64,000 nucleotides of DNA from a virus. Its lineage: Duplodnaviria; Caudoviricetes. Below the pieces are notes generated by a model, which searched no databases, was not told the DNA's origin, and saw only the letters and a program-made list of their open reading frames with translations. Position 1 is the first letter of the stretch, and every line of letters begins with the position of its first letter. The stretch lies in IMG/VR virus record IMGVR_UViG_3300025030_000042; one strand, given 5' to 3'. Both the position numbers and the translations under genes were made by a program. Below, one piece after another: positions 23,868 through 58,707 of the stretch.

Positions 23868-24122
23868 ATGAATCATTCAATATATAAATTAAAACTTCAT
23901 CATGATGATATTAATGTCGGCGATCTTGTTATTAGTTATGATGAAAATGAAAAAAATATTCGCATCATCATAAAAAAGAATAAAAAACAATTAAAATATT
24001 ATAGAATGCGCTCGACAAGTTTATTTTCCAAAGTTTATATGGAAACGATTCCTTTCGCACGCATCGGCCCAAACGATGTGTTTTATCGTGTATATCATAT
24101 ACCAGCGGGCAACATAAAATAA
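23868..24122 (+). CDS. K(V/I)GDL-family protein
   Basis: NVGDLV; start re-picked. Confidence 0.6.
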   Translation: MNHSIYKLKLHHDDINVGDLVISYDENEKNIRIIIKKNKKQLKYYRMRSTSLFSKVYMETIPFARIGPNDVFYRVYHIPAGNIK

Positions 24123-24123
24123 A

Positions 24124-24324
24124 ATGATTTCAAAACCAACAAAGCCAAAAGCCGGCGATCTCATAAAACATATATCTTGTTCCAATCATGTTATGGTTCA
24201 TGAGATAGATGAAAAAGGTTTTGTTTATGTATTTCCAGATTTAAAGTCAACTTTTTGGACAAATCATTCGTTCAATTCATTTTATGATTATCGTAATTGT
24301 AAAATAGTAGTTCGGACAACATAA
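24124..24324 (+). CDS. K(V/I)GDL-family protein
   Basis: KAGDLI. Confidence 0.6.
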   Translation: MISKPTKPKAGDLIKHISCSNHVMVHEIDEKGFVYVFPDLKSTFWTNHSFNSFYDYRNCKIVVRTT

Positions 24325-24341
24325 AAATAAAGGAGATATAA

Positions 24342-24803
24342 ATGAACAGCCCGTTTAAACCAACTACAAAGGAATATATTACAGACGATAGGTTATTTAA
24401 AATTAATGAAGATTATATAACAGACGACGAAGAGAGCCCAGACTACTATGGACCTAAAACATTACCCATCGGAAGAGTATCTCTAAAAGAAATTATGGAT
24501 GCTTATAAAGATATAGATCCAGGTTGTGTTTATATTGAGGCGGGTTATGACGAGGGTTGGAATAAAGGAGAAAAACTTTACATTAAAATCCCAAAAACAG
24601 ATGAGATGTTTGCTGAACGGATGAAGAAATACGAAATAGAAATGGTTAAATATAACGAATGGTTGACACAACAAGAATATTGGAAAACTCCGGAAGGCAA
24701 AACAGAAAAACAAAGAATCAAAGAAGAGAAAAAGAAACAAAAACTTCTCAAAGAAATGGAAAAAATTCAAATAAAGTTAAATATATTGAAGGATGCGGAA
24801 TGA
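24342..24803 (+). CDS. hypothetical protein
   Basis: AAGGAG RBS; last plus-strand gene before convergence. Confidence 0.75.
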   Translation: MNSPFKPTTKEYITDDRLFKINEDYITDDEESPDYYGPKTLPIGRVSLKEIMDAYKDIDPGCVYIEAGYDEGWNKGEKLYIKIPKTDEMFAERMKKYEIEMVKYNEWLTQQEYWKTPEGKTEKQRIKEEKKKQKLLKEMEKIQIKLNILKDAE

Positions 24804-24886
24804 TAACAAATCGATCGCGGTTATCATAAAGAAAAAGAATGTTATCGATGCGTGGACACAACCGATACAACAATCGATAAGTGCGG

Positions 24887-25030
24887 TAAGTGGTCGATTG
24901 GGTAATGGGAGATATAAGAGAAATAAAGATAATAATGAAAAGAGAGAAACGAGCAGTAAATGAGAAGGAAGGAACGGTAAGGTCGTGTGTGGACGATAAG
25001 TGGACGATTGGATAATGGAAAGATAAGAGA
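24887..25030. repeat. imperfect purine-rich direct repeat pair (~34 bp, period 110)
   Basis: TAAGTGGTCGATTGGGTAATGGGAGATATAAGAGA vs TAAGTGGACGATTGGATAATGGAAAGATAAGAGA. Confidence 0.6.
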
Positions 25031-25148
25031 TAATGAAGATCGGGTGTGGACGGACGTTCGCGAACCAAACGGTTGTATTTCCGAAATAAAATAAATAAAA
25101 CCTTAAATCTGGAAAAATGGTCCGGGCGTTACGAATGGATATGCGCAC

Positions 25149-25316
25149 CCACTAGTGGCTACCCGAGTAGCCGGCTAATATACTATCCGGCTTCTGGACT
25201 TGCCGGCAATTCGACAAGCCACGGAAGTTGCGAAAGCCTGGCGACTCCGTTAGCCACGGCAAACCCGATAGCCGCCTGGCTACCAGACTTGCCGTGGCTG
25301 CAGTGTTAGCCGGCTA
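25149..25316. repeat. dense palindrome/inverted-repeat cluster
   Basis: CCACTAGTGG, TAGCCGGCTA x2, TTGCCGGCAA, AGCCACGGCAA/TTGCCGTGGCT; 8 TAGCC/GGCTA pentamers. Confidence 0.7.
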
Positions 25317-25821
25317 CCATCGCCTTGCGCAGCTTGCCAAGTGCCCGATGCTTTGCATTGCCTACGTCAATCTGCGAGATTCCCAGCATATCCGCGATAT
25401 CCTTGTTACGCTCGCCATTCAAGATCCACGTGAGCAAGCATTGCTCGTACTCGCTGAGAGACTGCATCGCCCTGCGGAGCCTATCAGAGTCCACTGCCGA
25501 TGCTAGTGCCTCTTCTGGCGTATTGGACTCGTCTGCTACTGCTGCCGCTTGATCGTCGCCTGCCACGGTCCTACGATGGCTGGCGCCCCGCAGATGGTCC
25601 ATGGTCGTCTGATATGCGACCATACCGCACCATGTTCCGAGCGATGCGCCACGGCTCGGATCGTACTTGTCAAGGGTTCCCTCGGCGAGTCTGAGGTATG
25701 TTGCTTGCACGCAATCATCACGATCCTGCAGGCGATTGAACTTGGCAAGCTGCTTGCTTACCAGGCCACAGATCAAGCCGTGGTATTTGCTGGCGACGGT
25801 CTGGAGGTTGGCAGTTTCCAT
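25306..25821 (-). CDS. ECF-type sigma70-family RNA polymerase sigma factor
   Basis: Region 2 DDCVQATYLRL..YDPSRGASLGTW; region 4 LSEYEQ..NKDIADMLGIS..AKHRALGKLRK. Confidence 0.9.
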   Translation of the reverse strand: METANLQTVASKYHGLICGLVSKQLAKFNRLQDRDDCVQATYLRLAEGTLDKYDPSRGASLGTWCGMVAYQTTMDHLRGASHRRTVAGDDQAAAVADESNTPEEALASAVDSDRLRRAMQSLSEYEQCLLTWILNGERNKDIADMLGISQIDVGNAKHRALGKLRKAMVAG

Positions 25822-25856
25822 TGTCGATCCCTTTCGTTTCGTTAGCGTCTGTAGCT

Positions 25857-25885
25857 ACTATGAACGATAGAGAATCGGTTGTCAA
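25857..25885 (-). promoter_or_regulatory. host-type sigma70 promoter of sigma gene
   Basis: TTGACA-17-CATAGT. Confidence 0.6.
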
Positions 25886-25950
25886 GCGTCAAAAGAAAAG
25901 TTTTTTCTCTATAGGCGCCCCGCAGAGACGTTTTCTGGAGTCGGGTGTTC

Positions 25951-26244
25951 TTATCGGGACCCTCGAAAAAAACGGTTATTCGCTCGAAGCCTACCGTGCT
26001 GAGACCGCTCGTAATGCTCGAGTGCCTGCGCAAGCTCCGAGCCTACGCGCCGCTCGTAAACGTCCCTGGCGAGCCATAGGAACGCCTGGCGTACCTCGGG
26101 AGTCAGCACGATCCCCGTTGCCCGATGGCGCCATACCTCGTGGCGAACATCCGATCGGGCGCGCCGGGCGGCCCACAAGCCGAGACAGACGGCGAGGAAT
26201 CCAACGGCGAGGGAAAGCGCAACAATCATTTCGATGGGATTCAT
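25951..26244 (-). CDS. membrane-anchored early protein
   Basis: N-terminal TM, AAAGGA RBS, own promoter. Confidence 0.7.
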   Translation of the reverse strand: MNPIEMIVALSLAVGFLAVCLGLWAARRARSDVRHEVWRHRATGIVLTPEVRQAFLWLARDVYERRVGSELAQALEHYERSQHGRLRANNRFFRGSR

Positions 26245-26276
26245 TGTTTATCGTCCTTTGTTGGTTCGTTCGCGAA

Positions 26277-26304
26277 GTTATACGATCGCCGCTGGGATTT
26301 ATTT
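26277..26304 (-). promoter_or_regulatory. phage promoter motif copy 1
   Basis: AAATA-N12-GATCGTATAAC. Confidence 0.8.
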
Positions 26305-26336
26305 GCTGCCGGGCACAAGAAAAAAGAACATTAACG

Positions 26337-26549
26337 CTATCCGTTCGATAGCGTTAATCGCTTCGAATCAAGTACATCGCATGCTCTGAGGAACCTATCC
26401 CGGTCGAATCGCGGGTTATCCACTTGGAATAGATCGGCTACATTGCCGATAATGCGCCAGATTGCCTTATCAGCGTCGGATCCTTCGTTTTCCAATATCA
26501 GCTCATGACGAAACATATCCGCAAACTTCTGATAGTCCTTTTTTGTCAT
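26337..26549 (-). CDS. early protein, DNPRFDRDRF family (paralog A)
   Basis: MTKKDYQKF..DNPRFDRDRFLRAC; start re-picked. Confidence 0.75.
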   Translation of the reverse strand: MTKKDYQKFADMFRHELILENEGSDADKAIWRIIGNVADLFQVDNPRFDRDRFLRACDVLDSKRLTLSNG

Positions 26550-26576
26550 CGGGAAGCCTTTCGTTGGGTTCGAAGG

Positions 26577-26604
26577 GTTATACGATCGTGCTAAAGGTTT
26601 ATTT
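26577..26604 (-). promoter_or_regulatory. phage promoter motif copy 2
   Basis: AAATA-N12-GATCGTATAAC. Confidence 0.8.
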
Positions 26605-26643
26605 GCTGCCGGACACAAGAAAAAAGAACACTTGATTAAGATC

Positions 26644-26978
26644 TCCTTAGAGCTAGATAGAAATTATTCTTTCTGGATAACCACCGAAAGAACCGGCTTT
26701 CAATGATATTCACTACTTACGAAAAGTCAAGTAGTTTAATGAAGAAACTCCCTAAGCGATGATAGAATGGTACCAACGAAAGGGCTAGCCGAAACAACCG
26801 ACTTTCAATGATATCAAGTGGTTATCCAGAAAGAACAATTTTGATTGACTTTTCCTTAGGGCTAGATAGAACGGTACCGAATGCATGCCGCCCGTAAACA
26901 AGCTGTTTTCAATGATATTCAATACTTACGAAAAGTCAAGTAGTTTAATGAAGATCTGCCCTAAGCGATGATAGAATG
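26644..26978. repeat. nested non-coding direct and inverted repeats
   Basis: 72-bp DR 26698-26769/26907-26978 (67/72); 24-bp IR 26661-26684/26818-26841 (1 mismatch); TTTCAATGATAT x3. Confidence 0.9.
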
Positions 26979-26981
26979 ATA

Positions 26982-27188
26982 TCACCGGCAGGGCACCCAC
27001 GTGGGCACGTCCTTCGAGCATGCTTTCAAAAATCGATCACGATCGAACCTCGCGCTGTCGGCCTGAAACAGATCAGCAGTTTTGCTAATAATGCGCCAGA
27101 CCACTGCGCGTTCATTGTCACCATCGGCGGCCACTAGTAACTCATGCTGAAACATATGGATAAACCGCTGGTAATCTTTCTTTGTCAT
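26982..27188 (-). CDS. early protein, paralog B of 26337..26549
   Basis: MTKKDYQRF..DSARFDRDRFLKAC. Confidence 0.75.
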   Translation of the reverse strand: MTKKDYQRFIHMFQHELLVAADGDNERAVVWRIISKTADLFQADSARFDRDRFLKACSKDVPTWVPCR

Positions 27189-27216
27189 TAGGGAACCTTT
27201 CGTTGGCGTTCGAAAA

Positions 27217-27244
27217 GTTATACGATCAAGGACGATCGATATTT
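27217..27244 (-). promoter_or_regulatory. phage promoter motif copy 3
   Basis: AAATA-N12-GATCGTATAAC. Confidence 0.8.
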
Positions 27245-27515
27245 CATTTTATTTTTTGTTCAATGATCTCGCGCGGTTGTCACTTTCTTTTTGATATGGT
27301 GAATTTTGGCGATCGGGGTACTATTTACTGTAAAATAGCGGTCCAATCGCCCCCTAACCGCTCCATTTACCCCATTTTCAATCAAAAATTCCCATCCTAC
27401 CCCAAACAGCGGGTGGCTACCAAGGGTAGTCAAAGGTTTATATATTTTTTCTATCGTAACTGCCTTGTCCGTTCTTACCCTGTTTGTTACGCCCCTTTCA
27501 TATTTTTTCTTTATG

Positions 27516-27899
27516 TTAACGCCGAACAATGATCGCGCCTTTCGCTTCCATTATCGTCAACCATACGTTAAGCCCAATCGAATCCGTACTTTTCAAAGAT
27601 GTTAAATCTCCATTCCATCTATGACCTTGCGTCGTTCCCTCATGTCCGATGCAACCTTCGAACAACGATCGCACATTATCATCCGGCAAAGCAAGATCGA
27701 GATTCGGATCTTCCCAGATATTCTTTACTGGATCGTTCGATTCGGTTAGCATCTTTTCCTTATCAACTAAAACCGGCGCTTGGCTTTCTTCGAGTCTCAA
27801 GGGTCCGCGTGAATACGTTCCAAATGACGATCGTCCTTTCTCATAATATCCAGCCAAGCCCTTGATCACAACGATCGGTTTATCATTCTTGGTTGGCAT
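27516..27899 (-). CDS. early hypothetical protein
   Basis: start re-picked after promoter copy 4, GAAGGA RBS. Confidence 0.7.
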   Translation of the reverse strand: MPTKNDKPIVVIKGLAGYYEKGRSSFGTYSRGPLRLEESQAPVLVDKEKMLTESNDPVKNIWEDPNLDLALPDDNVRSLFEGCIGHEGTTQGHRWNGDLTSLKSTDSIGLNVWLTIMEAKGAIIVRR

Positions 27900-27929
27900 T
27901 GAAAGATCCTTCTGTTGATTGCTTGTGGA

Positions 27930-27957
27930 GTTATACGATCGTGGATGGGTTTTATTT
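27930..27957 (-). promoter_or_regulatory. phage promoter motif copy 4
   Basis: AAATA-N12-GATCGTATAAC. Confidence 0.8.
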
Positions 27958-27958
27958 T

Positions 27959-28351
27959 TCATTTCTCCGAAACAAAATAGGGTCGCAATTCCCCTCGAAT
28001 ATCCCAATAATGTCCACTATGTGTTGCCAGATCGCAAACCTCTTTCGGACCATAGTCGAGCTTTTCGTAATAGTCCTCGCGATCCCTATGGGTCGAAACA
28101 ATCTTACCATCAGGCATCGTATAACAGAACACAATTTTGCGCGCAATCATATCGCGCGTTGCTTGCTTCCAACCATCGCAATAAGAAAAAACCCATTGCG
28201 GGCACTTTGCTTTTTTCAAGGATTCGGTGATCTCGCATTCCTCCTTATTGATATCGCTGGAAAGCATACCATAAATTTGTGCTTTGCTGTAAAGATCGGC
28301 AAGTTGTCGAATCGCACGATTTTGATGATTGTATGCAGTCTGGAATTTCAT
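27959..28351 (-). CDS. early hypothetical protein
   Basis: AAAGGA RBS, own promoter. Confidence 0.75.
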   Translation of the reverse strand: MKFQTAYNHQNRAIRQLADLYSKAQIYGMLSSDINKEECEITESLKKAKCPQWVFSYCDGWKQATRDMIARKIVFCYTMPDGKIVSTHRDREDYYEKLDYGPKEVCDLATHSGHYWDIRGELRPYFVSEK

Positions 28352-28381
28352 TTGCCGATCCTTTGTTGGATGGTTCGATCG

Positions 28382-28409
28382 GTTATACGATCGGGAGCGG
28401 TTTTTATTT
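28382..28409 (-). promoter_or_regulatory. phage promoter motif copy 5
   Basis: AAATA-N12-GATCGTATAAC. Confidence 0.8.
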
Positions 28410-28462
28410 TTGTTATCGCTCCCGATATCGTTATCCTTTGTCGCGCGCGCCTGGCGGGGCCA

Positions 28463-28735
28463 TCATCGCCGGCGCGATCCTCGGCCAAATTGGCCAAATG
28501 TTACCATTGTGGATGGGATCGCGTTAGCGATGAACTTTGCCATATCGCCGTACCAGTTTTGTGCGCGCGCTAGGCGAGAATATGGCAGGTTTTCAAAATT
28601 TTGCTTGAGATATTCCAATTCATCGCCGTCCGCTTGTATCTCTGTGACCAAATTTTCCGTATTCATAACTCTCAAGGTTTCGCCCACGTGCCATTGTACC
28701 TCTTTTCCGGAATTCAATATAATATAAAGTGCCAT
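28463..28735 (-). CDS. early hypothetical protein
   Basis: AAAGGA RBS, own promoter. Confidence 0.7.
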   Translation of the reverse strand: MALYIILNSGKEVQWHVGETLRVMNTENLVTEIQADGDELEYLKQNFENLPYSRLARAQNWYGDMAKFIANAIPSTMVTFGQFGRGSRRR

Positions 28736-28756
28736 CGGATGTTCCTTTGTTGGAAA

Positions 28757-28784
28757 GTTATACGATCGCCACTGGAGAATATTT
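28757..28784 (-). promoter_or_regulatory. phage promoter motif copy 6
   Basis: AAATA-N12-GATCGTATAAC. Confidence 0.8.
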
Positions 28785-28787
28785 GTT

Positions 28788-28970
28788 TTAACTCATCGCA
28801 GAATAAGCGATATGATTCTGCAGTGTTAGATCGGCTTCTCGTTTTGCCTCACTTTTGGTTCCAGCGGTCCATACGCTAACAACACACCGTCCGTAATGAT
28901 ACCAGTCGCAAAGCCAACCGCTATCCTTCTTTACCATTTTTAGAGTATATTGTTTCCTTTTGTTTTCCAT
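28788..28970 (-). CDS. early hypothetical protein
   Basis: start re-picked MENKRKQY. Confidence 0.6.
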   Translation of the reverse strand: MENKRKQYTLKMVKKDSGWLCDWYHYGRCVVSVWTAGTKSEAKREADLTLQNHIAYSAMS

Positions 28971-28978
28971 TGTTTTTT

Positions 28979-29152
28979 TTACTTCGCCTCTGTCTCTGTT
29001 TCTGACACGTTGAATCCCGTTTGCGTCAAGATTGCCCACAACGTTTTGACGTGCACGCTTTCGACCTTGTTTGCGTCAAGTTCATTCAGCCAGTTTCGCA
29101 AAATCTTTTGAAATTCCTCTCCGGTCATTTGACTTACATGTTTCCAAGCCAT
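28979..29152 (-). CDS. 57 aa early protein (not in track)
   Basis: MAWKHVSQMTGEEFQKILRNWLNELDANKV..; AAGGA RBS after promoter copy 7. Confidence 0.65.
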   Translation of the reverse strand: MAWKHVSQMTGEEFQKILRNWLNELDANKVESVHVKTLWAILTQTGFNVSETETEAK

Positions 29153-29183
29153 TGGATTGATCCTTGTTCGTTTCGTTCATAAG

Positions 29184-29211
29184 GTTATACGATCGTCGGC
29201 AGGATTTATTT
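29184..29211 (-). promoter_or_regulatory. phage promoter motif copy 7
   Basis: AAATA-N12-GATCGTATAAC. Confidence 0.8.
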
Positions 29212-29471
29212 CAAGCCTTCTTTCTTTTTGTTACCGCCGGAATTCCGGCCGCCGGAGACTTTCCTTGCTGCTCTGCTTCCGAATCCAAATGATCCAGAGC
29301 AATATCAACCACTTCGTTCTTTACCTTCGTTGTCGTGTTGTGCAAAGCCTTTAGATTGTTCCAGAAAATCGTCATATTCTGGCGTGCCAAAGCCGATCGG
29401 GCTTGCACCAGCGACTTTTCGATGGTTTCGAGAAGTTCCACAAGCGCCGTCTTTTCGTTTAGGGTGAGCAT
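29211..29471 (-). CDS. early coiled-coil protein
   Basis: 86 aa, own promoter. Confidence 0.7.
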   Translation of the reverse strand: MLTLNEKTALVELLETIEKSLVQARSALARQNMTIFWNNLKALHNTTTKVKNEVVDIALDHLDSEAEQQGKSPAAGIPAVTKRKKA

Positions 29472-29503
29472 TGTTGTCTTCTTTCGTTTATGTGTTGTGG
29501 TGG

Positions 29504-29531
29504 GTTATACGATCAATGCTGGAATTTATTG
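29504..29531 (-). promoter_or_regulatory. phage promoter motif copy 8
   Basis: CAATA-N12-GATCGTATAAC. Confidence 0.75.
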
Positions 29532-29948
29532 CCGATAAATGAAGAACATTTCGCCGTCAAGTTCCGCTTCGTTTTCCTCGCCGTCATAACCTGAAATGAA
29601 ATGCCCTCTGCCATCGGCAGAAATCGCATCATTGACAAAGTGATCAAAATCCTTGATCAGCGCTCGGATCGTATCGTTGGCATCCTCGCACTTTTCCTTT
29701 TGAAACGATTGAATCATTTTCTCCGCTTCCAAGGGTAGATCCGTATGTGACAGAATGAAACCGGTATTGAATGCCCAAAAACTTTGCTCGATTTGTTCCC
29801 TGCAACGCGTATTGGCTTCGTCATTGGTCAACACAAGAAAGTTTTCCCGTTCGCCGGAAACTTCAAAGCAATCGCTATCATAATCGTTTCGTGAAACATC
29901 CTCAAGATCACAATCGAGAAACTTTGCGAGGGCTTTTGCTTTTGTCAT
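29526..29948 (-). CDS. very acidic early protein, possible DNA mimic/antirestriction
   Basis: about 32 D/E vs 14 K/R in 140 aa; GRGHFISGYDGEE. Confidence 0.6.
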   Translation of the reverse strand: MTKAKALAKFLDCDLEDVSRNDYDSDCFEVSGERENFLVLTNDEANTRCREQIEQSFWAFNTGFILSHTDLPLEAEKMIQSFQKEKCEDANDTIRALIKDFDHFVNDAISADGRGHFISGYDGEENEAELDGEMFFIYRQ

Positions 29949-29995
29949 TGGATTAAAACCTTTTGGGCGAATACTTGATATAGCTTGCGTGGCAT
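29945..29995 (-). pseudogene. 16-codon remnant duplicating the start of 31615..32007
   Basis: MPRKLYQVFAQKVLIQ*, stop overlaps next ATG. Confidence 0.7.
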
Positions 29996-30034
29996 TTGAA
30001 AAACCTTTGTTGTGGTGTTCGAAGGGTTATACGA

Positions 30035-30400
<366 letters not shown>

Positions 30401-30425
30401 TGTGCTTGTTCCTTTGCTGCGGTGT

Positions 30426-30941
30426 TCAATGAGTTATACGATCGTCGACATATTTTCTTTTGAAGAATCTTTCGAGTCCTACCTTAAAAAAGAAATTGTG
30501 ATCAATGTCATTTGCTTTATAGGTTTCGCGCATACAATTAAAAAGAACATGGCTTAACTCGTGAATAAATGTAATGTATAGTTTATATTCCGTGCCGTTG
30601 GAGATTTTGATCGTTCTTTCATATGGTATCGTAACTCCGTTACATTGTTCAACATTATCTGAACACAGCACTGAATCTGAATCAAAGAATGTTATCTGTG
30701 TTATCGGAAGTTCTTCGTTTGCCATACAATCGAGCGTGGCATCATTAAAAACATTTCTCCAGAAATCAAGCGTTTCTTTTGTCCACACTTCGATCATTGT
30801 CTGCTTTGGACCGTTGATATTCTCCAATTTAACGTTCGAACCGTAACTTGTTCTATAGATATGATACGGTTCGATCGGATCGATTATTTCACAGCCGACA
30901 CAACAAATAACCACAATCAAAATATTTTGTTTATTGACCAT
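30426..30941 (-). CDS. putative lipoprotein with HExxH motif
   Basis: VVICCVGC signal/lipobox; FIHELSH; start re-picked. Confidence 0.6.
   Translation of the reverse strand: MVNKQNILIVVICCVGCEIIDPIEPYHIYRTSYGSNVKLENINGPKQTMIEVWTKETLDFWRNVFNDATLDCMANEELPITQITFFDSDSVLCSDNVEQCNGVTIPYERTIKISNGTEYKLYITFIHELSHVLFNCMRETYKANDIDHNFFFKVGLERFFKRKYVDDRITH
30433..30460 (-). promoter_or_regulatory. phage promoter motif copy 10
   Basis: AAAGA-N12-GATCGTATAAC. Confidence 0.7.
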
Positions 30942-31320
30942 AGACATTACCCTTGAAAACATAAAGATCATAAGATCCAAAAGACTTTGATTTTTCCGAA
31001 AGTTTGTCTCCCAATTCCCCAAGTCCACGATCCCAGAACCCTGCGCCATGGCCATTGCGCGTCAACCAAAAATCGTGTCCAGCGTGGCTTTCATCGTATT
31101 CCTCATAATATTCCATAAGTTCGACTTTTGCATACTCTTGAAAATCTTCACATTCCTTGATCATTTTTTTTAGAATCTTTGAATCAATATCCTCAATTCC
31201 ATAGTTATCTTCTAGTGATGCTTCCATTTCGCCGTCTTCCGACCATTCGGTCGAAGACCATAAAGCACGCTCAAGATAGCCTGTCACAAAATCACTTAGA
31301 TTATCAAGATCGATCGTCAT
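30931..31320 (-). CDS. acidic early protein (GHDFWLTRNGHGAGFWD motif)
   Basis: about 30 D/E vs 12 K/R; own promoter. Confidence 0.75.
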   Translation of the reverse strand: MTIDLDNLSDFVTGYLERALWSSTEWSEDGEMEASLEDNYGIEDIDSKILKKMIKECEDFQEYAKVELMEYYEEYDESHAGHDFWLTRNGHGAGFWDRGLGELGDKLSEKSKSFGSYDLYVFKGNVYGQ

Positions 31321-31351
31321 TTTGTTTCTCGCTTGTTGGGTTGCTTGTGGA

Positions 31352-31379
31352 GTTATACGATCGAACCTGGAGATTATTC
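31352..31379 (-). promoter_or_regulatory. phage promoter motif copy 11
   Basis: GAATA-N12-GATCGTATAAC. Confidence 0.75.
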
Positions 31380-31568
31380 GCTAGAATCTTCGATAAATGA
31401 ATAATTTTTATACAATGAGCCATCTATATATTTTATCATAATATAACTAAGTTTATTTCTATTTTCTCCAAAAAGAATACCATATAAACTCAAGATCGAT
31501 TCTGGATTACCAACAACACTATTGCACGAAGAATCTTGTTCGTCATATGCCCATTGCAGTATTAACAT
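31374..31568 (-). CDS. hypothetical protein
   Basis: AAGGA RBS; AT-rich. Confidence 0.55.
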   Translation of the reverse strand: MLILQWAYDEQDSSCNSVVGNPESILSLYGILFGENRNKLSYIMIKYIDGSLYKNYSFIEDSSE

Positions 31569-31614
31569 TTTCTTTGTTTTCCTTACTTTTTTAGAAAAAC
31601 AAATTTAACTTTGT

Positions 31615-32007
31615 TTACTCGCTATCCGGAATTTCATTTGTCAGAACATCATAGAAAATCTCTTTAATGTAATCTTTGATATCGTTTCGATTCTTTCCGG
31701 AAACCTTCACATTAATCTGATTGTCTAGCGAAGCGGTAACGGTAACTCTGTGGTTTGTCCAATCATCATAAAAACCATTTTCGTTCATATGATGAAATGC
31801 GGTAAAAAACATAAGCTTTTCGCCAGTTGAATAATCAAGATCGATCGTTGTTCCAGAGTCAAATCCCGATCCGCTGGGCATACGATTCTTAACAAGTTCT
31901 TCGATCTTTGTGGTATGGTTATCAAACCATACGTCATTGTCGTGCTTTTCGCAGTTACGGCGCGCCTGAACTGTGCTGGCGAATACTTGATATAGCTTGC
32001 GTGGCAT
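31615..32007 (-). CDS. early hypothetical protein (PSGSGFD..FHHM motif)
   Basis: 130 aa, own promoter. Confidence 0.75.
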   Translation of the reverse strand: MPRKLYQVFASTVQARRNCEKHDNDVWFDNHTTKIEELVKNRMPSGSGFDSGTTIDLDYSTGEKLMFFTAFHHMNENGFYDDWTNHRVTVTASLDNQINVKVSGKNRNDIKDYIKEIFYDVLTNEIPDSE

Positions 32008-32037
32008 TTGAAAAACCTTTGTTGTGGTGTTCGAAGG

Positions 32038-32065
32038 GTTATACGATTCAGGCTTAGAAACATTT
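32038..32065 (-). promoter_or_regulatory. phage promoter motif copy 12 (variant)
   Basis: AAATG-N12-AATCGTATAAC; GATC lost. Confidence 0.7.
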
Positions 32066-32283
32066 TAGCAATCCGCTTTGATACTGGTCAATGCTGCTTC
32101 CATGAATGAAGTTGTTTGTTTCTTTTTCTTTAGAATGGCGCGCATTTGTGCTTCTCGACGCTTCAGCCAATCGATCCAATCGAGTGTACAACGAAGACAT
32201 AAGGCGCAAGTTTCGGTCCATTTGTGCCCCGTGGCGGGGTGGAAAGGACCGCGACAGATTAAACATTGCGTTGGGCAAGTCAT
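32065..32283 (-). CDS. small zinc-finger early protein
   Basis: CxxC..H..CxxC. Confidence 0.65.
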   Translation of the reverse strand: MTCPTQCLICRGPFHPATGHKWTETCALCLRCTLDWIDWLKRREAQMRAILKKKKQTTSFMEAALTSIKADC

Positions 32284-32300
32284 TTTATTGTCTCCGGAGA

Positions 32301-32328
32301 GTTATACGATCGTCAATCGGATTTATTT
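32301..32328 (-). promoter_or_regulatory. phage promoter motif copy 13
   Basis: AAATA-N12-GATCGTATAAC. Confidence 0.8.
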
Positions 32329-32771
32329 CTTTTTTGTTGTGCCCGTCGCAAACATCGGGAATCGCTCGCATATGGCAGGACCGATCCATTTTGATACTCT
32401 TTTGCTATACTATCAATCAAATTGGACGGCAGTGTTTTCGCAATGATAGTTGCCCAACGATTGATATCACGATCGGACAAGGGAGGTTGAATTGGCGCAA
32501 TGTCGCTTGCTTGCGATTCTAGGGACCTGTGCGCCTCGTGGGGGCGTCGGGAAACATTTTGTGATGCGTTATGTCCATTTTGCTTAAATCGCCTCTCACG
32601 AGAAAAAAACACTCTCTTTTTTATAATCCTTTCCGCACACCAAAAAGAAATCCATCCCACGACAAATCCAATGAAATATATGCTCGTTGTCCAAGATGGA
32701 GATCCCCAAGAAAATGCCCAACAAATCAAAAAAGCTGGCGATACGATCGAAAACAATCTTAAAAGTTTCAT
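32313..32771 (-). CDS. membrane protein (2 N-terminal TM)
   Basis: 152 aa ORF. Confidence 0.5.
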   Translation of the reverse strand: MKLLRLFSIVSPAFLICWAFSWGSPSWTTSIYFIGFVVGWISFWCAERIIKKRVFFSRERRFKQNGHNASQNVSRRPHEAHRSLESQASDIAPIQPPLSDRDINRWATIIAKTLPSNLIDSIAKEYQNGSVLPYASDSRCLRRAQQKRNKSD

Positions 32772-32794
32772 TAGTTTTCATTTGGTTTTGTTTT

Positions 32795-33004
32795 TCAAAA
32801 TTCCGGCATATCCGGTTTGATCATTCCCAAAAGCAACGCTTGTTCCGCTCCAATAACCTTGTGCTCGCCACACTCCGGACAATCGTAGCCTTCCGCGTCA
32901 GGTTCGGTTGTGTCACGAGTGAAATCTTGACAAACCGGACACCAGCCTTGATATGAATCAACGGCATCTTGATAGTCTTCGAAGGAAACGACGATGGTTT
33001 TCAT
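32795..33004 (-). CDS. acidic zinc-ribbon protein
   Basis: GWCPVC..EPDAEGYDCPECG. Confidence 0.75.
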   Translation of the reverse strand: MKTIVVSFEDYQDAVDSYQGWCPVCQDFTRDTTEPDAEGYDCPECGEHKVIGAEQALLLGMIKPDMPEF

Positions 33005-33005
33005 T

Positions 33006-33215
33006 TCACTTCTTCCATATTTTTATAGTTTCTTCAGTAGCGTCTTCAAGTGGACACCAATCAGGACAACTATCAATATCTTTAATCTCTTTTTTGTTCA
33101 TAGCAAAACAAATGTGGTATTTTGCTTCTTGATAAAAATGATGATCGGCGGTATATACTTCCTTTCTATTCCTACAATACATACAACTTGGTACAAGAAT
33201 CACCATTTGCTTCAT
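33006..33215 (-). CDS. Cys-rich hypothetical protein
   Basis: CxxC..C..CPDWCPL; start re-picked. Confidence 0.65.
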   Translation of the reverse strand: MKQMVILVPSCMYCRNRKEVYTADHHFYQEAKYHICFAMNKKEIKDIDSCPDWCPLEDATEETIKIWKK

Positions 33216-33430
33216 TGCCCCTGCTCCGCGCAACTTCCGGAGCAAACGGAACGAGGTTCGCCCATATCGCACTCGAAACGGTCATCATCATCATTGTTTT
33301 CGTCAAGTTCATCGATCATCTCGAATGTCTCTTGACGATTTCGAGAACGATTGTAAGCCACCTTGCTTTGATGGGCGAGATCCCACTTGTTTCGAATCGG
33401 ATGAAGATTCTTGTGTCGATTGATTTTCAT
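33212..33430 (-). CDS. early hypothetical protein
   Basis: follows promoter copy 14. Confidence 0.6.
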   Translation of the reverse strand: MKINRHKNLHPIRNKWDLAHQSKVAYNRSRNRQETFEMIDELDENNDDDDRFECDMGEPRSVCSGSCAEQGQ

Positions 33431-33483
33431 TGTCGTTCTTTCATTTGTTTCGTTAGTAATTCGTTAGTAAGTAGGTTCGTTAT

Positions 33484-33511
33484 GTTATACGATCGAAACT
33501 GAAGATTATTT
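33484..33511 (-). promoter_or_regulatory. phage promoter motif copy 14
   Basis: AAATA-N12-GATCGTATAAC. Confidence 0.8.
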
Positions 33512-33733
33512 CTTATATTTTCTTTCAATGCGCGCCATAATATTCAACGCTACATCTTCCGAAATCTCTCTATTGAAATGTTCCATAACTCCAGCAAATC
33601 GCACGGCATCGTCAATGATCCATCCTTCGTCAAAAAATCGTCCAAAATCGTCAGTAAACATACCTTCGCACTCAGGATCCAAAAGGGGCGGCAAACGGCG
33701 CCACACTTCTGTTATATATTCGTTTTTATTCAT
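33506..33733 (-). CDS. hypothetical protein
   Basis: 75 aa. Confidence 0.65.
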   Translation of the reverse strand: MNKNEYITEVWRRLPPLLDPECEGMFTDDFGRFFDEGWIIDDAVRFAGVMEHFNREISEDVALNIMARIERKYKK

Positions 33734-33737
33734 TTTT

Positions 33738-33947
33738 TCAAACCTTCTGCGTTTCGACTGCTTCAGCAGCCTTGATCAAAGCCATCGCAAGTTCACGGGC
33801 TTGTTCGGGTTTCAAAGATGCTGATTCGTGATTATTCAAAGACAATAGAACCAAATAATACGATTTTGAAGGCAATACGCACGCACAGTGATTTTCCGAC
33901 CACATAAAATCCATATGCTCTCCGCGCTTCAAATCCTTGATAATCAT
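33738..33947 (-). CDS. hypothetical protein
   Basis: LKPEQARELAMALIKAA helix motif. Confidence 0.65.
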   Translation of the reverse strand: MIIKDLKRGEHMDFMWSENHCACVLPSKSYYLVLLSLNNHESASLKPEQARELAMALIKAAEAVETQKV

Positions 33948-34110
33948 TGGTCATTTCCTTTGTCAGAGATTGTTACGAATATATTCCCTTAGATTCTTCA
34001 AGGATTGAGAAAGTTCGTGCATCCATTCAAGTGTGTTTTTTGTTTGCGACGGTGGTTTATTATCCATTTTGAATGCCTCTTTTCACATCTTTATCAATCC
34101 CTCAAGAATC

Positions 34111-34142
34111 GCACCGTCCGACCATCATCGATCGGACGGTGC
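34111..34142 (-). terminator. strong GC hairpin after 34153..34689
   Basis: 11-bp IR GCACCGTCCGA/TCGGACGGTGC; weak U tract. Confidence 0.55.
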
Positions 34143-34152
34143 CTTGTTGTCA

Positions 34153-34689
34153 TTACGCAACCTTCTTGTTCTTGCGTGATCCGCTTGCAGGCGGGGGTGT
34201 CAACACTTCGTTTGCCAGACGATCCAGAAACTCGTGACGATTTGCCTCGTTCGCTTCCTTGGCGCCTTCCTGGCGACCCGACACGCTGTAACAGTATCGC
34301 GTCAGAAGCTGTCCAAGATGCGTCAACGAATCTCCAAGGGTCTCGACACTACGATCCCATTCCGAATCGATCAACGCGCCGGCGTGCTGAACAAGGATCC
34401 GTTCGGCCTGTGCGCGATCCTCAACGGTCTTGCTCGTAACGCTCGGACCCACACCATAAGCGCGCTTTGGCTTTGCAACGGACTGACAAGCCTCAACCAA
34501 TCGCTCTGCATCTCGAAGTAGATCTACCTTCTCAAGATCGATCCCCTCACTCTCCGAAACCTGAATCAGATCTCGCATATTGAAGTTGGTGCCTTTGATA
34601 ACGTTCAGGGCAGACACCAACTTGCGAGCACGCTTCTCAACATCACTCAACGGTCCAGTCTTCGTTCCTGCAGTACGTCCACGTGGCAT
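34153..34689 (-). CDS. GC-rich early protein with AT-hook-like N-terminus
   Basis: MPRGRTAGTK; basic C-terminal tail. Confidence 0.7.
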   Translation of the reverse strand: MPRGRTAGTKTGPLSDVEKRARKLVSALNVIKGTNFNMRDLIQVSESEGIDLEKVDLLRDAERLVEACQSVAKPKRAYGVGPSVTSKTVEDRAQAERILVQHAGALIDSEWDRSVETLGDSLTHLGQLLTRYCYSVSGRQEGAKEANEANRHEFLDRLANEVLTPPPASGSRKNKKVA

Positions 34690-34801
34690 GTTACTCTACC
34701 TTTCTTGCGTCATTGACGCTTGTTGTTGCTCCGACATTGGAGCGGTTATCCCATCTCTTCTCTCGTTCCCGTTCCCGTTCGTCTTCGTCTTCTCACATTG
34801 T

Positions 34802-34829
34802 ATTATACGATCGAACCTTGTCAATATTT
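34802..34829 (-). promoter_or_regulatory. phage promoter motif copy 15
   Basis: AAATA-N12-GATCGTATAAT. Confidence 0.8.
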
Positions 34830-35096
34830 TTTTGTTCGTAACGACGGAAAAAGTTTTTTCGTGATCTCGCAATTGTCTTTACCAACGGTCCGAATCTTCA
34901 TCAAATAGCGCGCGTGCTCGAATGCTTCCTCGCGTGTGGAAAAAATTCCATAGACTTGACGCGGGGATAATCCGCCGACAGTCTGGATCATTAGACTGAT
35001 GAAGTTACTTTCGAAAGCAATATCATATAATTCACTATCTTTTGTGGGATAGGTTACGATCCAAAAGGTGAGCAGTAGATCTCTGGAGATTTTCAT
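34821..35096 (-). CDS. hypothetical protein
   Basis: 91 aa. Confidence 0.6.
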   Translation of the reverse strand: MKISRDLLLTFWIVTYPTKDSELYDIAFESNFISLMIQTVGGLSPRQVYGIFSTREEAFEHARYLMKIRTVGKDNCEITKKLFPSLRTKKY

Positions 35097-35101
35097 TGTT
35101 A

Positions 35102-35362
35102 TTATTCTTTTTCCGGAATCTTATATGTTGCTGGTTTGATTTCTTTTCTATGCCCACAACATTTACAAGTTTCAAATTCAGCAGGAGTATTTTCTTCTAG
35201 TTCAATATAATACTCGTCGCCATTTCCATTTGTTTGATCTACTTCGTTGAACCATACGCACAACTCCCGACAATACGGGCAACCCTCTTCATAATCATAA
35301 GCATCTTCTGTCCATTGATGACCATTTTTACAAAGAAGTTGTGTATATCCTTTGTATGACAT
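35102..35362 (-). CDS. zinc-ribbon protein
   Basis: CKNGH, CPYC, CKCCGH. Confidence 0.7.
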   Translation of the reverse strand: MSYKGYTQLLCKNGHQWTEDAYDYEEGCPYCRELCVWFNEVDQTNGNGDEYYIELEENTPAEFETCKCCGHRKEIKPATYKIPEKE

Positions 35363-35381
35363 TTTTTGTTATCTCTAGTGA

Positions 35382-35409
35382 GTTATACGATCCACATTGT
35401 TAAATATTT
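35382..35409 (-). promoter_or_regulatory. phage promoter motif copy 16
   Basis: AAATA-N12-GATCGTATAAC. Confidence 0.8.
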
Positions 35410-35410
35410 G

Positions 35411-35479
35411 TTCCTGGGAAAGGATTTGAACCTTTACTTGGGATGATCAGTCCTGCCTCTACCATTGGGCTACCCAGGA
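35411..35479 (-). tRNA. tRNA-like element with 3-bp anticodon stem (loop CUGAUCA)
   Basis: TCCTGGG/CCCAGGA, GCC-CAATGGTAGA-GGC, GGA-CTGATCA-TCC, AAAGG-TTCAAAT-CCTTT; ends A-CAA. Confidence 0.65.
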
Positions 35480-35513
35480 AAAAGTAAACCGGGGTAGTTA
35501 TTGTCTCTACCCC
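35480..35513 (-). terminator. intrinsic terminator
   Basis: GGGGTAG/CTACCCC hairpin then TTTACTTTT. Confidence 0.65.
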
Positions 35514-35529
35514 AGTCTGGTTTGTTATA

Positions 35530-35835
35530 TTACGCAAGATTGAATCCCTTCAGAGTTAGAAAGTAACTCGTCTCATCACGAGCACTCTGAACCACATATC
35601 CCAACTCGACATACCGCGCCAGGGTCGGGGCACTGAAAAGACTCTCGTCGAAGCCCTGCCCCGCCATCAAGTCACCGTTACGAATCAGCACGCGAAGTTT
35701 GCTGACACGATCCACCTTGATACCTGCCGGGCGACCACGCTTGCGCCTCGGAAACTCCACAACACCGCTCTGCTCGATGCTCTGCTCGACACTCTGTACC
35801 GGAACCACCCGAAGCTGAAGATTCATCGTGTCCAT
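35530..35835 (-). CDS. GC-rich early protein with AT-hook
   Basis: RRKRGRPAG; GGAG RBS. Confidence 0.7.
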   Translation of the reverse strand: MDTMNLQLRVVPVQSVEQSIEQSGVVEFPRRKRGRPAGIKVDRVSKLRVLIRNGDLMAGQGFDESLFSAPTLARYVELGYVVQSARDETSYFLTLKGFNLA

Positions 35836-35865
35836 TTGCTCCTGCCTTTCTTGTTTGTTCGCTCG

Positions 35866-35893
35866 ATTATACGATCGGACCTGAAGAATATTT
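35866..35893 (-). promoter_or_regulatory. phage promoter motif copy 17
   Basis: AAATA-N12-GATCGTATAAT. Confidence 0.8.
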
Positions 35894-35905
35894 TGTTTTC
35901 TTTCT

Positions 35906-36157
35906 TTAGTTCTCGCCCTTCTTTGGTGACATTGACACTTTTCTCATTTCAACCAAGTGTTTCGCTACCTTGACTGTTTCGACCATTTCATATACGAAGT
36001 TGAACTCTTCAATCAATCCCTTTTGTTTAATGATTTCCAAAATATTCCGAAGATCAACATACCGATAAAGATCGGTGGTTTCGCTACTATGAATGAGCAT
36101 AATTTTAACATTACAACCTTCGATCAATAGATCGAGATGCGATGATTCTTTTTCCAT
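35906..36157 (-). CDS. hypothetical protein
   Basis: 83 aa. Confidence 0.65.
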   Translation of the reverse strand: MEKESSHLDLLIEGCNVKIMLIHSSETTDLYRYVDLRNILEIIKQKGLIEEFNFVYEMVETVKVAKHLVEMRKVSMSPKKGEN

Positions 36158-36166
36158 TGCTCGCCT

Positions 36167-36385
36167 TCAACTTTCTTGTCGCAAATCATTCATCATACAT
36201 TTAGAAATGGATATCTGTAGTTGTTGACACGGGCGCATCAAAAAACTTTCGTCATACCATTTAATACAATCGTCTGAAAACCAATAAACTTCATATCTCC
36301 TTTCTTGATAAGAAACAACGATCCCTAGTGATTCGTCATCATAGATTCTGGAAATGAAATCACCGATGGCAAACTTTCGATTCAT
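36167..36385 (-). CDS. K(V/I)GDL-family protein
   Basis: FAIGDFI..LGIVV..YEVYWF. Confidence 0.7.
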   Translation of the reverse strand: MNRKFAIGDFISRIYDDESLGIVVSYQERRYEVYWFSDDCIKWYDESFLMRPCQQLQISISKCMMNDLRQES

Positions 36386-36386
36386 T

Positions 36387-36728
36387 TTACTTTCCTTCAT
36401 AAATCTTCTTTAATCTTTCAAATTCGGCAAGTTCCTGCTGCTTTTGTTGTTCAACTTGTTCTTTTTCTTTTGTAATCCTATCCTGAAACTCTTCGTCTGT
36501 TTCCAATCGTCGACCACAAACTTTTACAACAACCGATTCTTCACGATCATAAGCAGATTCATAACCTTTTTCAATATCAATACGAACCTCGTCTTCGTCG
36601 ATATTTTCTTTTGCCGCCCATTCTCTGAGAATAAGGCAAGTTTTTTCTATTGCTTTCAAAGTTTCGAAACCGCTTACACCAAAATAATAGGGATGATTTG
36701 GCATATAGATAGTTTTATGTTTTTTCAT
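36387..36728 (-). CDS. hypothetical protein, paralog of 39851..40186
   Basis: ETDEE..RLKKIYEGK; start re-picked. Confidence 0.7.
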   Translation of the reverse strand: MKKHKTIYMPNHPYYFGVSGFETLKAIEKTCLILREWAAKENIDEDEVRIDIEKGYESAYDREESVVVKVCGRRLETDEEFQDRITKEKEQVEQQKQQELAEFERLKKIYEGK

Positions 36729-36820
36729 CTGGAAAACACTCCTCTTAAGATCCATCCTAATACAAACGCCAACGCAAGAAATATCATTGATATCTTTATT
36801 GAATTTTGTTCGTCGTTCAT
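36725..36820 (-). CDS. 31 aa membrane peptide
   Basis: AGGAGG RBS after promoter copy 18; MNDEQNSIKISMIFLALAFVLGWILRGVFSR. Confidence 0.6.
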   Translation of the reverse strand: MNDEQNSIKISMIFLALAFVLGWILRGVFSR

Positions 36821-36846
36821 TTTGACACTTCCTCCTTCTACCACGG

Positions 36847-36874
36847 ATTATACGATCTATGTAGCAAAATTTTT
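36847..36874 (-). promoter_or_regulatory. phage promoter motif copy 18
   Basis: AAAAA-N12-GATCGTATAAT. Confidence 0.7.
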
Positions 36875-37071
36875 CAGAAAATCGTCAGCAACGGTCGCTT
36901 TAAAGCATTTTGTTCGGCGGAAAGCAACTTTTGTGCCAAACTTTTTTTCATATTTGTGATCCGGCTTACGAAAAAAAAATCGTCCGACGAGAAATATTTC
37001 CTTGACCGCAGAGGTAGAAACGCTATCCTATAATCGTATCATTCAGTAACCGTCGTCACCAAGGAGACACC

Positions 37072-37260
37072 ATGAAAGTCCGCGACCTGATCGAGACCCT
37101 CAAAACAATGAACCCCGAGAAACCCCTTCAATGTCGCCACGTTAAGTTTGCCCATTGCGGTTCAACCAAGATCGAATCGGTATTCCAGATTACAGTCGTT
37201 GACCGAAACGGGGAACTCTTGCTCTCCGATTCTGAAGATCTCACCGACGAGAATCAGTAG
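37072..37260 (+). CDS. small hypothetical protein (MKVRDLIETL)
   Basis: AAGGAG RBS; TTGACC-16-TATCCT upstream. Confidence 0.7.
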   Translation: MKVRDLIETLKTMNPEKPLQCRHVKFAHCGSTKIESVFQITVVDRNGELLLSDSEDLTDENQ

Positions 37261-37326
37261 CCCACCCCACAATCATCTCCCCCGCATTGTAAAAAATTCA
37301 CTCTGTTGGGGGAGATCTTTCCCGCA

Positions 37327-37354
37327 TTGACAAGTCCTTTCTCCATCGTATAAT
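37327..37354 (+). promoter_or_regulatory. consensus sigma70 promoter
   Basis: TTGACA-16-TATAAT, preceded by ATCG. Confidence 0.8.
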
Positions 37355-37397
37355 CCAATAGTAAATCACTTTTGGTAAAGAAAGAGAGGATGAAACG

Positions 37398-37730
37398 ATG
37401 GCAAAAGGATTCAAATGTAATGTGTGCGGGTCGATGACGGTCCACAACAAGGGATCACACCAGCAGTGTTCCACGTGTCGCACGGTATCGTGGAGTTGGG
37501 AACAGGGAGTTCGTGGTCTTGGTTCGGGTCGGGGGCATAAGTGCCCTTGGTGCACGCTTCCGACGCTTCATATTGTCAACACATATAGTTGTGGAGACGG
37601 AACGGAACTGGATATTTCGCGTTGTTCGACCTGTAACTACAGGTCGATCACCGATGCCAACTGGAATCAAAAGCCGGACGGAAAGGGGGTAGAAGATCGA
37701 ACGGAAATAGAAGAAAAACATCTCTCATAA
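37398..37730 (+). CDS. multi zinc-ribbon protein
   Basis: four CxxC pairs. Confidence 0.7.
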   Translation: MAKGFKCNVCGSMTVHNKGSHQQCSTCRTVSWSWEQGVRGLGSGRGHKCPWCTLPTLHIVNTYSCGDGTELDISRCSTCNYRSITDANWNQKPDGKGVEDRTEIEEKHLS

Positions 37731-37745
37731 TCTCCCGCCCATATA

Positions 37746-37940
37746 TCATTCAACAATATGCTCGATGTTACATTCGGTCAACATCGAGCATATTCTTTTT
37801 TTATCTTCTTTATCAATACAATAAGTTAGAATATCATAAATCTTTGATTTGAATTTGGGATAACCAAGATTTGTCATTGTTCGAATGGTTTCATTAGAGA
37901 CTTTCACAAGAACCAAAACAGTTTCTTTATTTTGTTTCAT
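37746..37940 (-). CDS. hypothetical protein
   Basis: 64 aa. Confidence 0.55.
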   Translation of the reverse strand: MKQNKETVLVLVKVSNETIRTMTNLGYPKFKSKIYDILTYCIDKEDKKRICSMLTECNIEHIVE

Positions 37941-58147: not shown

Positions 58148-58148
58148 T

Positions 58149-58706: not shown

Positions 58707-58707
58707 T

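Follow-up and report, generated by a model that had tools for sequence, protein, structure and literature searches.

The phage locus described here is most likely a two-step transcriptional switch of a kind known in other phages, equipped with a new sigma factor and a new recognition sequence. Host sigma70 would prime the synthesis of a phage-encoded sigma factor of the ECF type, and this phage sigma probably reads an array of 18 promoters in the adjoining block of small genes. The gene and its fold class, the two promoter classes, their conservation and their linkage are all seen in the sequence itself. The window (the whole stretch of DNA analysed, 64,000 nucleotides) is part of the genome, of ~211 kb, of an uncultured groundwater phage. 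Groundwater and soil metagenomes contain 24 contigs that encode exactly this sigma protein; the longest has 211,467 bp, and one record has 210,922 bp. The sequencing runs that carry the phage DNA are groundwater and soil DNA runs. Genes in the window include those for GroEL, an RNA ligase, an adenylosuccinate-synthetase-like and a GMP-reductase/IMPDH-like protein, an amidase, a dUTPase and two adenine methyltransferases. The GC content of the window is ~30-35%, with the exception of ~25.0-35 kb, where it is 44-53%. Comparison of positions 24000-38000 with 50,697 phage records by megablast gave no match, nor did a tblastn comparison of the polymerase-like open reading frame at 63331-63975 with phages, made to check T4-relatedness.

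The sigma factor is encoded by the following elements:

25306-25821, minus strand: ECF-type sigma gene (171 aa, ATG start), recognised by TIGR02937, Pfam and predicted fold; sigma2 at about residues 6-83, disordered linker at 84-101, sigma4 at 102-170
25828-25834, minus strand: ribosome-binding site AAAGGGA, 6 nt before the ATG, read from the sequence

The preliminary description had called this gene an ECF sigma, and the open reading frame indeed encodes a two-domain ECF-type sigma factor. TIGR02937 (sigma70-ECF) covers the protein over its full length (E 1.4e-20, 73.5 bits against a cutoff of 42.9), PF04542 (Sigma70_r2) matches residues 12-81 (E 2e-8), and PF08281 (Sigma70_r4_2, the helix-turn-helix of region 4.2) matches residues 113-164 (E 6.9e-7). 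The AlphaFold model (pLDDT 86.7) consists of a three-helix sigma2 domain, a floppy linker of 18 residues and a four-helix sigma4 domain whose helices span residues 102-170. Region 1.1 and the sigma3 domain are absent, with only the low-confidence linker at 84-101 between the two domains, as expected of group 4. Fold comparison with the PDB gives ECF sigmas in all of its 23 best matches (SigH, SigL, AlgU, sigmaE, SigW, CnrH and SigK), the best over the full length being SigH, SigL, AlgU, sigmaE and SigW; by sequence, the best PDB match is SigL (E 5e-4).

Within this class the protein stands apart. In a set of 1.84 billion representative proteins, no E-value below 1e-30 is reached outside its own cluster, the next match having an E of 2.8e-12 at 32% identity; identity to any protein of this set is at most ~32-38%, and the best cellular relative reaches 32%. 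No characterised ECF group could be assigned, every NCBIfam subfamily match lying far below its cutoff. A tblastn search of 50,697 phage records gave no match at E <= 1e-3, a search of IMG/VR for loci related to the phage sigma found nothing, and the nearest distant relatives (P0005 and P0007) sit on short, cellular-looking contigs. The phage sigma is an orphan branch, and its specificity can therefore not be transferred from any characterised ECF group, which counts against the proposed cascade. Three relatives have sigmas that are 78-80% identical in amino acids and lie on short contigs of one assembly with about 49% GC (L007, L008 and L009); each of the contigs has 2-4 copies of the bipartite array motif, and the sigma4 recognition helix is invariant across the window and all three. 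The three versions of the sigma cassette, ~20% apart at the protein level, all come from one bin of this assembly (GCA_030688525.1) that is labelled 'bacterium', a sign of several related phages in that sample or of a phage population binned wrongly.

The sigma gene, placed by the preliminary description at the end of the regulon, is the final minus-strand gene of the block and convergent with plus-strand genes; its GC content is 57% (GC3 65%). No recognisable anti-sigma partner accompanies it: the downstream side has no gene, only a structured non-coding region, and the membrane protein of 97 aa encoded upstream shows no anti-sigma domain in Pfam or PHROGs. A predicted complex of the phage sigma with the soluble part of this protein scored 0.00, in a run without controls.

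The second component of the locus is the array, with its associated features:

26277-36874, minus strand: array of 18 promoters, AAATA-N12-GATCGTATAAY(-N4-CGAAC), defined by pattern counts and alignment; motif starts at 26277, 26577, 27217, 27930, 28382, 28757, 29184, 29504, 30026, 30433, 31352, 32038, 32301, 33484, 34802, 35382, 35866 and 36847
25951-26304, minus strand: last array promoter (AAATA box to GATCGTATAAC, 26277-26304) with its gene for a protein of 97 aa with an N-terminal membrane helix (25951-26244)
34797-34829, minus strand: array promoter overlapping TTGACA-16-TACAAT (11/12), before a gene for a protein of 178 aa (34153-34689)
35410-35479, minus strand: tRNA-Ile (GAU), found by ARAGORN and Rfam RF00005 (43.4 bits); the AAATA box of the promoter at 35382 begins directly at its 3' end
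37327-37354, plus strand: promoter with both hexamers perfect, TTGACA-16-TATAAT, at the block's far edge and pointing away from it, with the -10 region ATCGTATAAT as in the array promoters

The count of 18 promoters with a repeated motif was borne out: GATCGTATAAY is present in 17 exact copies and one variant, AATCGTATAAC; every copy lies on the minus strand, within 26277-36857. With one mismatch allowed, the motif has 23 matches against 3.05 expected, and AAAT-N16-CGTA is found 14 times on the minus strand of the block against 0.4 in shuffles. Alignment of the 18 copies yields AAATA-N12-GATCGTATAAC-N4-CGAAC with zero variation in spacing, the AAATA-type box lying exactly 12 nt upstream in each. 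Downstream of each copy follows the ATG of a small open reading frame, at a distance of 17-32 nt (more in a few cases), usually with an AAAGG-type ribosome-binding site. The motif is restricted to the island beside the sigma gene, near-matches elsewhere in the window being without the AAATA box, and a scan of IMG/VR for AAATA-N12-GATCGTATAAY returned 59 single matches at chance level and no further array. These 18 island-confined copies form a private class of promoters, distinct from the host consensus and positioned upstream of phage genes. At 34802, where a host-type site overlaps the motif, both sigmas could possibly read the promoter of the 178-aa gene.

The geometry of the array is that of an ECF promoter. 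In B. subtilis, it is a CGTA -10 element that makes a promoter selective for sigmaW. ECF promoters in general combine a -10 element of the CGT type and a spacer of 14-17 bp with tight adherence to their consensus (PMC5758882), and the iron-starvation (IS) box of PvdS reads TAAAT-N16-CGT (PMC2235872). Measured against a cognate promoter with AAC at -35, CGT at -10 and a spacer of 14-17, the array fits in its CGT and its spacer; its -35 element is AAAT, as for PvdS, and not AAC. The lack of the AAC that is typical of many ECF promoters counts against the proposed cascade.

The sigma gene has a promoter of another type:

25857-25885, minus strand: host sigma70-type promoter of the sigma gene; -35 TTGACA at 25885-25880, spacer of 17 nt, -10 CATAGT at 25862-25857
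25886-25905, minus strand: A/T-rich tract, AAAAACTTTTCTTTT..., just upstream of the -35, with AAA-ACTTTT invariant in 4/4 aligned loci

This promoter, TTGACA-17-CATAGT, takes the place of the repeated motif, as had been claimed, and is kept in the three relatives. It matches the sigma70 consensus at 10/12 positions and lies 35 nt upstream of the ATG. In the 13-kb region, 35 sites score at least 9/12 against 24.8 +/- 4.6 in shuffles; the match alone is therefore at chance level, and the case for the promoter rests on conservation. The hexamers of the four loci are:

window: -35 TTGACA, -10 CATAGT
L007: -35 TTGACA, -10 CATAGT
L008: -35 TTGACT, -10 CATCAT
L009: -35 TTGACA, -10 CATACT

The form shared by the relatives is TTGAC[A/T]-N16/17-CAT[A/C]NT, in which TTGAC, A-11 and T-7 are invariant, and substitutions in the -10 element are confined, among the four loci, to -9 and -8, its two least critical positions. 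Invariant columns in the alignment make up 9/12 of the hexamers against 23/75 of the flanks (Fisher p = 0.005). The promoter is retained even though the gene upstream differs, encoding the 97-aa membrane protein in L007 as in the window, but a 65-aa protein in L008 and L009. The A/T-rich tract at 25886-25905 is possibly an UP element. Many consensus or near-consensus TTGACA-N16-18-TATAAT promoters, several with TGn, are found in intergenic positions elsewhere in the window, and the abundance of these promoters in the same phage makes it evident that the host polymerase reads this class. The conserved TTGAC-N17-CATnnT thus places the sigma gene under what appears to be a host-sigma promoter; it resembles the host housekeeping type, and its pattern of conservation, as would be expected of a working sigma70 promoter, supports this view. 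Seven invariant bases around the -10, CGTTCAT, count against the cascade, as they could signify something besides a sigma70 -10. Two other candidates were rejected. As an ECF promoter, the region has its CGT just 11-13 nt from A-rich/AAC elements, and the AAC is not conserved in the relatives; an overlapping site, TTGACG-17-TATCGT (25892-25864), is likewise not conserved among them.

The preliminary description had made the sigma gene the exception in its block. This stands in so far as the gene has its own host-type promoter, but other sigma70-like sites exist in the block, namely the overlap at 34802 and two repeats with TTGACT-16-TATCAT. The latter lie in a non-coding gap of ~400 nt (26620-26990, minus strand) that contains two copies of a ~190-nt repeat, each with TTGACT-16-TATCAT (10/12) and with no open reading frame behind it; the same elements are present in L007 and L009, and they may be small RNA genes under host-type promoters.

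Taken together, promoter type, conservation and ECF geometry support the cascade originally proposed, in which host sigma70 would produce the phage sigma and the phage sigma would read the 18 promoters. Host RNA polymerase with its housekeeping sigma70-type factor would start at TTGACA-17-CATAGT and yield the mRNA of the phage ECF sigma. The sigma would then bind host core polymerase, recognition of the AAAT(A) box (about -34/-30) falling to its sigma4 domain and that of the CGTA core of GATCGTATAAY to its sigma2 domain. The 18 near-identical promoters would thereby fire and bring about the transcription of one tRNA and of about 27 small genes, most of them orphans. It is by linkage only that we infer the assignment of this sigma to this motif: its gene is the last of the island and has the same foreign composition as the island (GC3 is 65% in the sigma gene, 66% in its neighbour and 23-30% in core genes), and sigma and motif are co-inherited. 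Which form of the polymerase acts at each promoter is likewise inferred from sequence, as are timing and feedback.

Most ECF sigmas autoregulate. Here the promoter directly upstream of the sigma gene is TTGACA-17-CATAGT and not of the array type, so that positive autoregulation from a promoter of the sigma's own class was not found; in this, as in having no recognisable anti-sigma, the phage sigma departs from most ECF sigmas, a point against the cascade. The last array unit, consisting of the 26277 promoter and the 97-aa gene, lies directly upstream of the sigma promoter, and its homologues occupy the same place in L007 and L009. No convincing terminator was found between the 26277 promoter and the sigma gene, which indicates that the sigma is probably also made by read-through from this promoter, raising its own synthesis in a positive feedback. 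The cascade is then probably not strictly one-way, and an indirect autoregulation of the sigma via 26277 is possible; the positive feedback usual in cellular ECF systems would be reached here by different wiring.

Other readings of the two promoter classes have to be weighed. The TATAAY of the array occupies the place of a sigma70 -10 element, 17 nt from the AAATA box, and at 37327 a perfect sigma70 promoter combines this -10 region with a TTGACA equally far upstream. Such features favour an appropriation like that of T4, the alternative named in the preliminary description, in which sigma70 reads TATAAY, a MotA-like activator (with or without an AsiA-like remodeller) acts on the AAATA box, and the ECF sigma serves another purpose; the about 27 orphan proteins of the island could conceal an activator. 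The middle promoters of T4, however, join an excellent sigma70 -10 (TAtaaT) to a MotA box, (a/t)(a/t)(a/t)TGCTTtA, at 12 +/- 1 bp, and tolerate loose boxes (PMC2988021). Although the array shares with MotA/AsiA control a phage element at the -35 position upstream of a TATAAx hexamer (PMC2988021), its box is AAATA and not TGCTT, its sigma70 -10 is poor, its spacing is rigid, and it is accompanied by a dedicated sigma gene. At -7, one of the two bases most critical to sigma70, 15 of the 18 copies have C, with flips between C and T among orthologous copies in the relatives, and the five extra invariant bases upstream of the hexamer, GATCG, are unexplained by sigma70 contacts. Both the excellent -10 and the MotA box are missing, and tblastn of T4 AsiA and MotA against the window, a search of low sensitivity, gave noise only and no relative. 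Pfam and PHROGs searches with about 20 island proteins likewise revealed no regulator, anti-sigma, MotA or AsiA family, and the array-linked sigma gene would be left with no regulon. The T4-like alternative consequently appears unlikely. A further proposal is that sigma70 alone reads the array, as unusual early promoters with an A-rich box and a near-consensus -10, the target of the phage sigma lying elsewhere. With its small genes, the island does resemble a classic block for early functions or host takeover, TATAAT is present in three array promoters, and one promoter overlaps TTGACA. Nevertheless, the phage has two sharply distinct promoter classes, the canonical one being abundant outside the island; as sigma70 promoters the array copies are poor, with nAAATA at the -35 position (2/6), no TTGACA, no TGn and, mostly, no T-7, and a near-invariance over 28 nt is atypical of sigma70 promoters. 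We give this proposal only a slender chance.

The remaining alternatives concern the origin of the reading factor and the status of the sigma promoter. A host ECF sigma, for example one for envelope stress that is induced by infection, might read the array, with the phage sigma as a reinforcing mimic or acting on host genes; the motif does match the generic cellular ECF pattern AAAx-N16-CGTA, and phage homologues of sigma that act on host programmes are known (PMC9429907). A phage sigma that shares no more than ~32-38% identity with any of the 1.84 billion representative proteins is not a recent host copy, and the co-inheritance of sigma and motif in the relatives also speaks against this reading, which is very improbable. 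It has equally to be asked whether TTGACA-17-CATAGT is a working start at all, or whether the sigma is made by read-through from the array only, some other factor or basal transcription firing the array first. The site is at chance level on its own, has no clear terminator upstream, and belongs to a sigma type in which autoregulation is the rule; yet its hexamers are conserved over their flanks, the substitutions at -9/-8 are the tolerable ones, the element follows the gene, and a purely autoregulated sigma could not get started. This version, too, is thus judged highly doubtful, and a host-primed phage sigma that reads the array is the explanation preferred here.

The switch in this preferred form has several precedents, from each of which it differs. 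T4-like jumbo phages encode sigma factors, according to comparative work (PMC7824862). In phiEco32 (gp36) and Salmonella phage 7-11 (gp47), similarly, sigma70 early promoters are followed by a phage sigma that redirects host core polymerase to a private promoter class (PMC12276001, PMC8948821); phage 7-11 has sigma70-dependent early promoters, and its gp47 class is bipartite with a 16-bp spacer, GTAAtg-16-aCTA (PMC8948821, PMC12276001). Those sigmas have no detectable sequence relation to the one described here, whose consensus is AAAT-N16-CGTATAAY; instead of middle/late or structural genes, its proposed regulon comprises the small orphan genes of one island, and no gp79-like cofactor was identified. 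In SPO1, host-sigma-dependent early transcription likewise yields a phage sigma, gp28, which switches the polymerase to the next class (PMC13401047). There, gp28 drives middle genes including the next sigma, gp33/34, whereas here an ECF-type sigma would serve one compact island. Cellular ECF factors of group 4, such as sigmaW and PvdS, share the sigma2-linker-sigma4 fold, the A-rich -35, the 16-nt spacer, the CGT(A) and the close adherence to a consensus. The present factor is instead a phage-borne orphan lineage (<=32-38% identity), its -35 has no AAC, its -10 is extended to an invariant 11-mer, and there is neither an array-type autoregulatory promoter directly upstream nor a recognisable anti-sigma partner. 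The array also resembles the PeSL cassettes in hyperplastic regions of T4-type phages, where many small orphan genes have a repeated promoter, some with a stem-loop before it, and where the gene content between repeats varies among relatives (PMC2839356, PMC4122927). PeSL promoters are, however, sigma70 early promoters, whereas the repeats here are of the ECF type and have an upstream stem-loop at some copies only. A 12-bp stem-loop with a T-run is found directly before the AAATA box of two array promoters, at 26330-26358 (minus strand) and upstream of 26577, and the terminator-then-promoter order at these two is the likeness to PeSL cassettes in T4-type phages.

The island that houses the array is GC-rich, extends over 11.5 kb and comprises about 27 small, mostly orphan genes and one tRNA. 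Its composition follows a gradient (25306-36900): GC is 57-62% in the sigma and 97-aa genes (GC3 about 65%), 40-49% in the middle and ~35% in some distal genes; six core genes outside the island have a GC of 34-42% and a GC3 of 0.23-0.41. This gradient suggests a foreign origin, with mosaic structure or amelioration. GATC is enriched in the island (25000-37300; 121 against 45.5 expected), as is CGATCG (29 against 2.1 expected); 13 of the 29 CGATCG copies lie in array promoters, and many of the others read CGATCGT within genes, where they could be decayed promoter copies or recombination scars. Two adjacent genes at 57656-58823 (minus strand) encode adenine methyltransferases, PF05869 Dam (E 2e-30) and MT-A70 (E 1e-27), and are relevant because every array promoter has GATC at -17 to -14. 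Behind the array promoters at 30026-30036 and 32038-32048, the 5' leaders are identical and the genes begin with the same codons (MPRKLYQ...); the 30026 copy seems to head a truncated duplicate, evidence, as it appears, of cassette duplication. The island protein of 121 aa encoded at 30035-30400 (minus strand) has a long (SE)n repeat, derived from a GAGAGT tandem repeat.

The intergenic side of the sigma gene is marked by one further feature:

25060-25305, minus strand: structured, conserved non-coding region 3' of the sigma gene, with a 22-bp hairpin at ~25253-25299 right after the stop codon

This region folds with a minimum free energy of -101.5 kcal/mol (z = -4.9 against shuffles). Both L007 and L009 conserve it, and it has no match in Rfam. 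It lies between convergent transcription units, and the hairpin has an insertion of 17 nt in L007 and L009. A terminator, an RNase III site or a stabiliser would be guesses as to its role. The adjoining positions 24830-25060, between the convergent genes, are a non-coding tract that is purine-rich on the plus strand and has repeated GTGGACG-like units; the tract is conserved in L007 and L009, where the TGTATCGGT unit is expanded in tandem.

A broader scenario can be put forward tentatively and as speculation. The GC-rich island might be a horizontally acquired, self-contained orthogonal module, with its own ECF sigma, one 28-nt promoter per cassette and a single host-type 'ignition' promoter, that replaces MotA/AsiA middle-mode control in a huge phage. 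As with PeSLs, its promoters might also serve as sites of recombination by which cassettes are shuffled, and the GATC in the promoters, together with the two methyltransferases, may make firing sensitive to DNA methylation or to the state of replication.

The principle by which a host sigma leads to a phage sigma and this in turn to private promoters has long been established. What is new is an orphan sigma of the ECF type, a sharply defined new recognition sequence, and a regulon in the form of an island of foreign composition with about 27 small orphan genes. Phage sigma cascades would thereby come to include an ECF-type factor from an uncultured lineage of huge phages, one whose regulon consists of small orphan genes and not of late genes. 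The locus is a compact natural pair, a 171-aa ECF sigma and a 28-nt promoter in 18 natural variants, along with one presumed host-type ignition promoter, and sigma/promoter pairs of this kind are useful as orthogonal expression parts. For the biology of the phage, the array groups about 27 uncharacterised genes into what would be a single co-regulated set, a smaller field in which to look for functions in host takeover.
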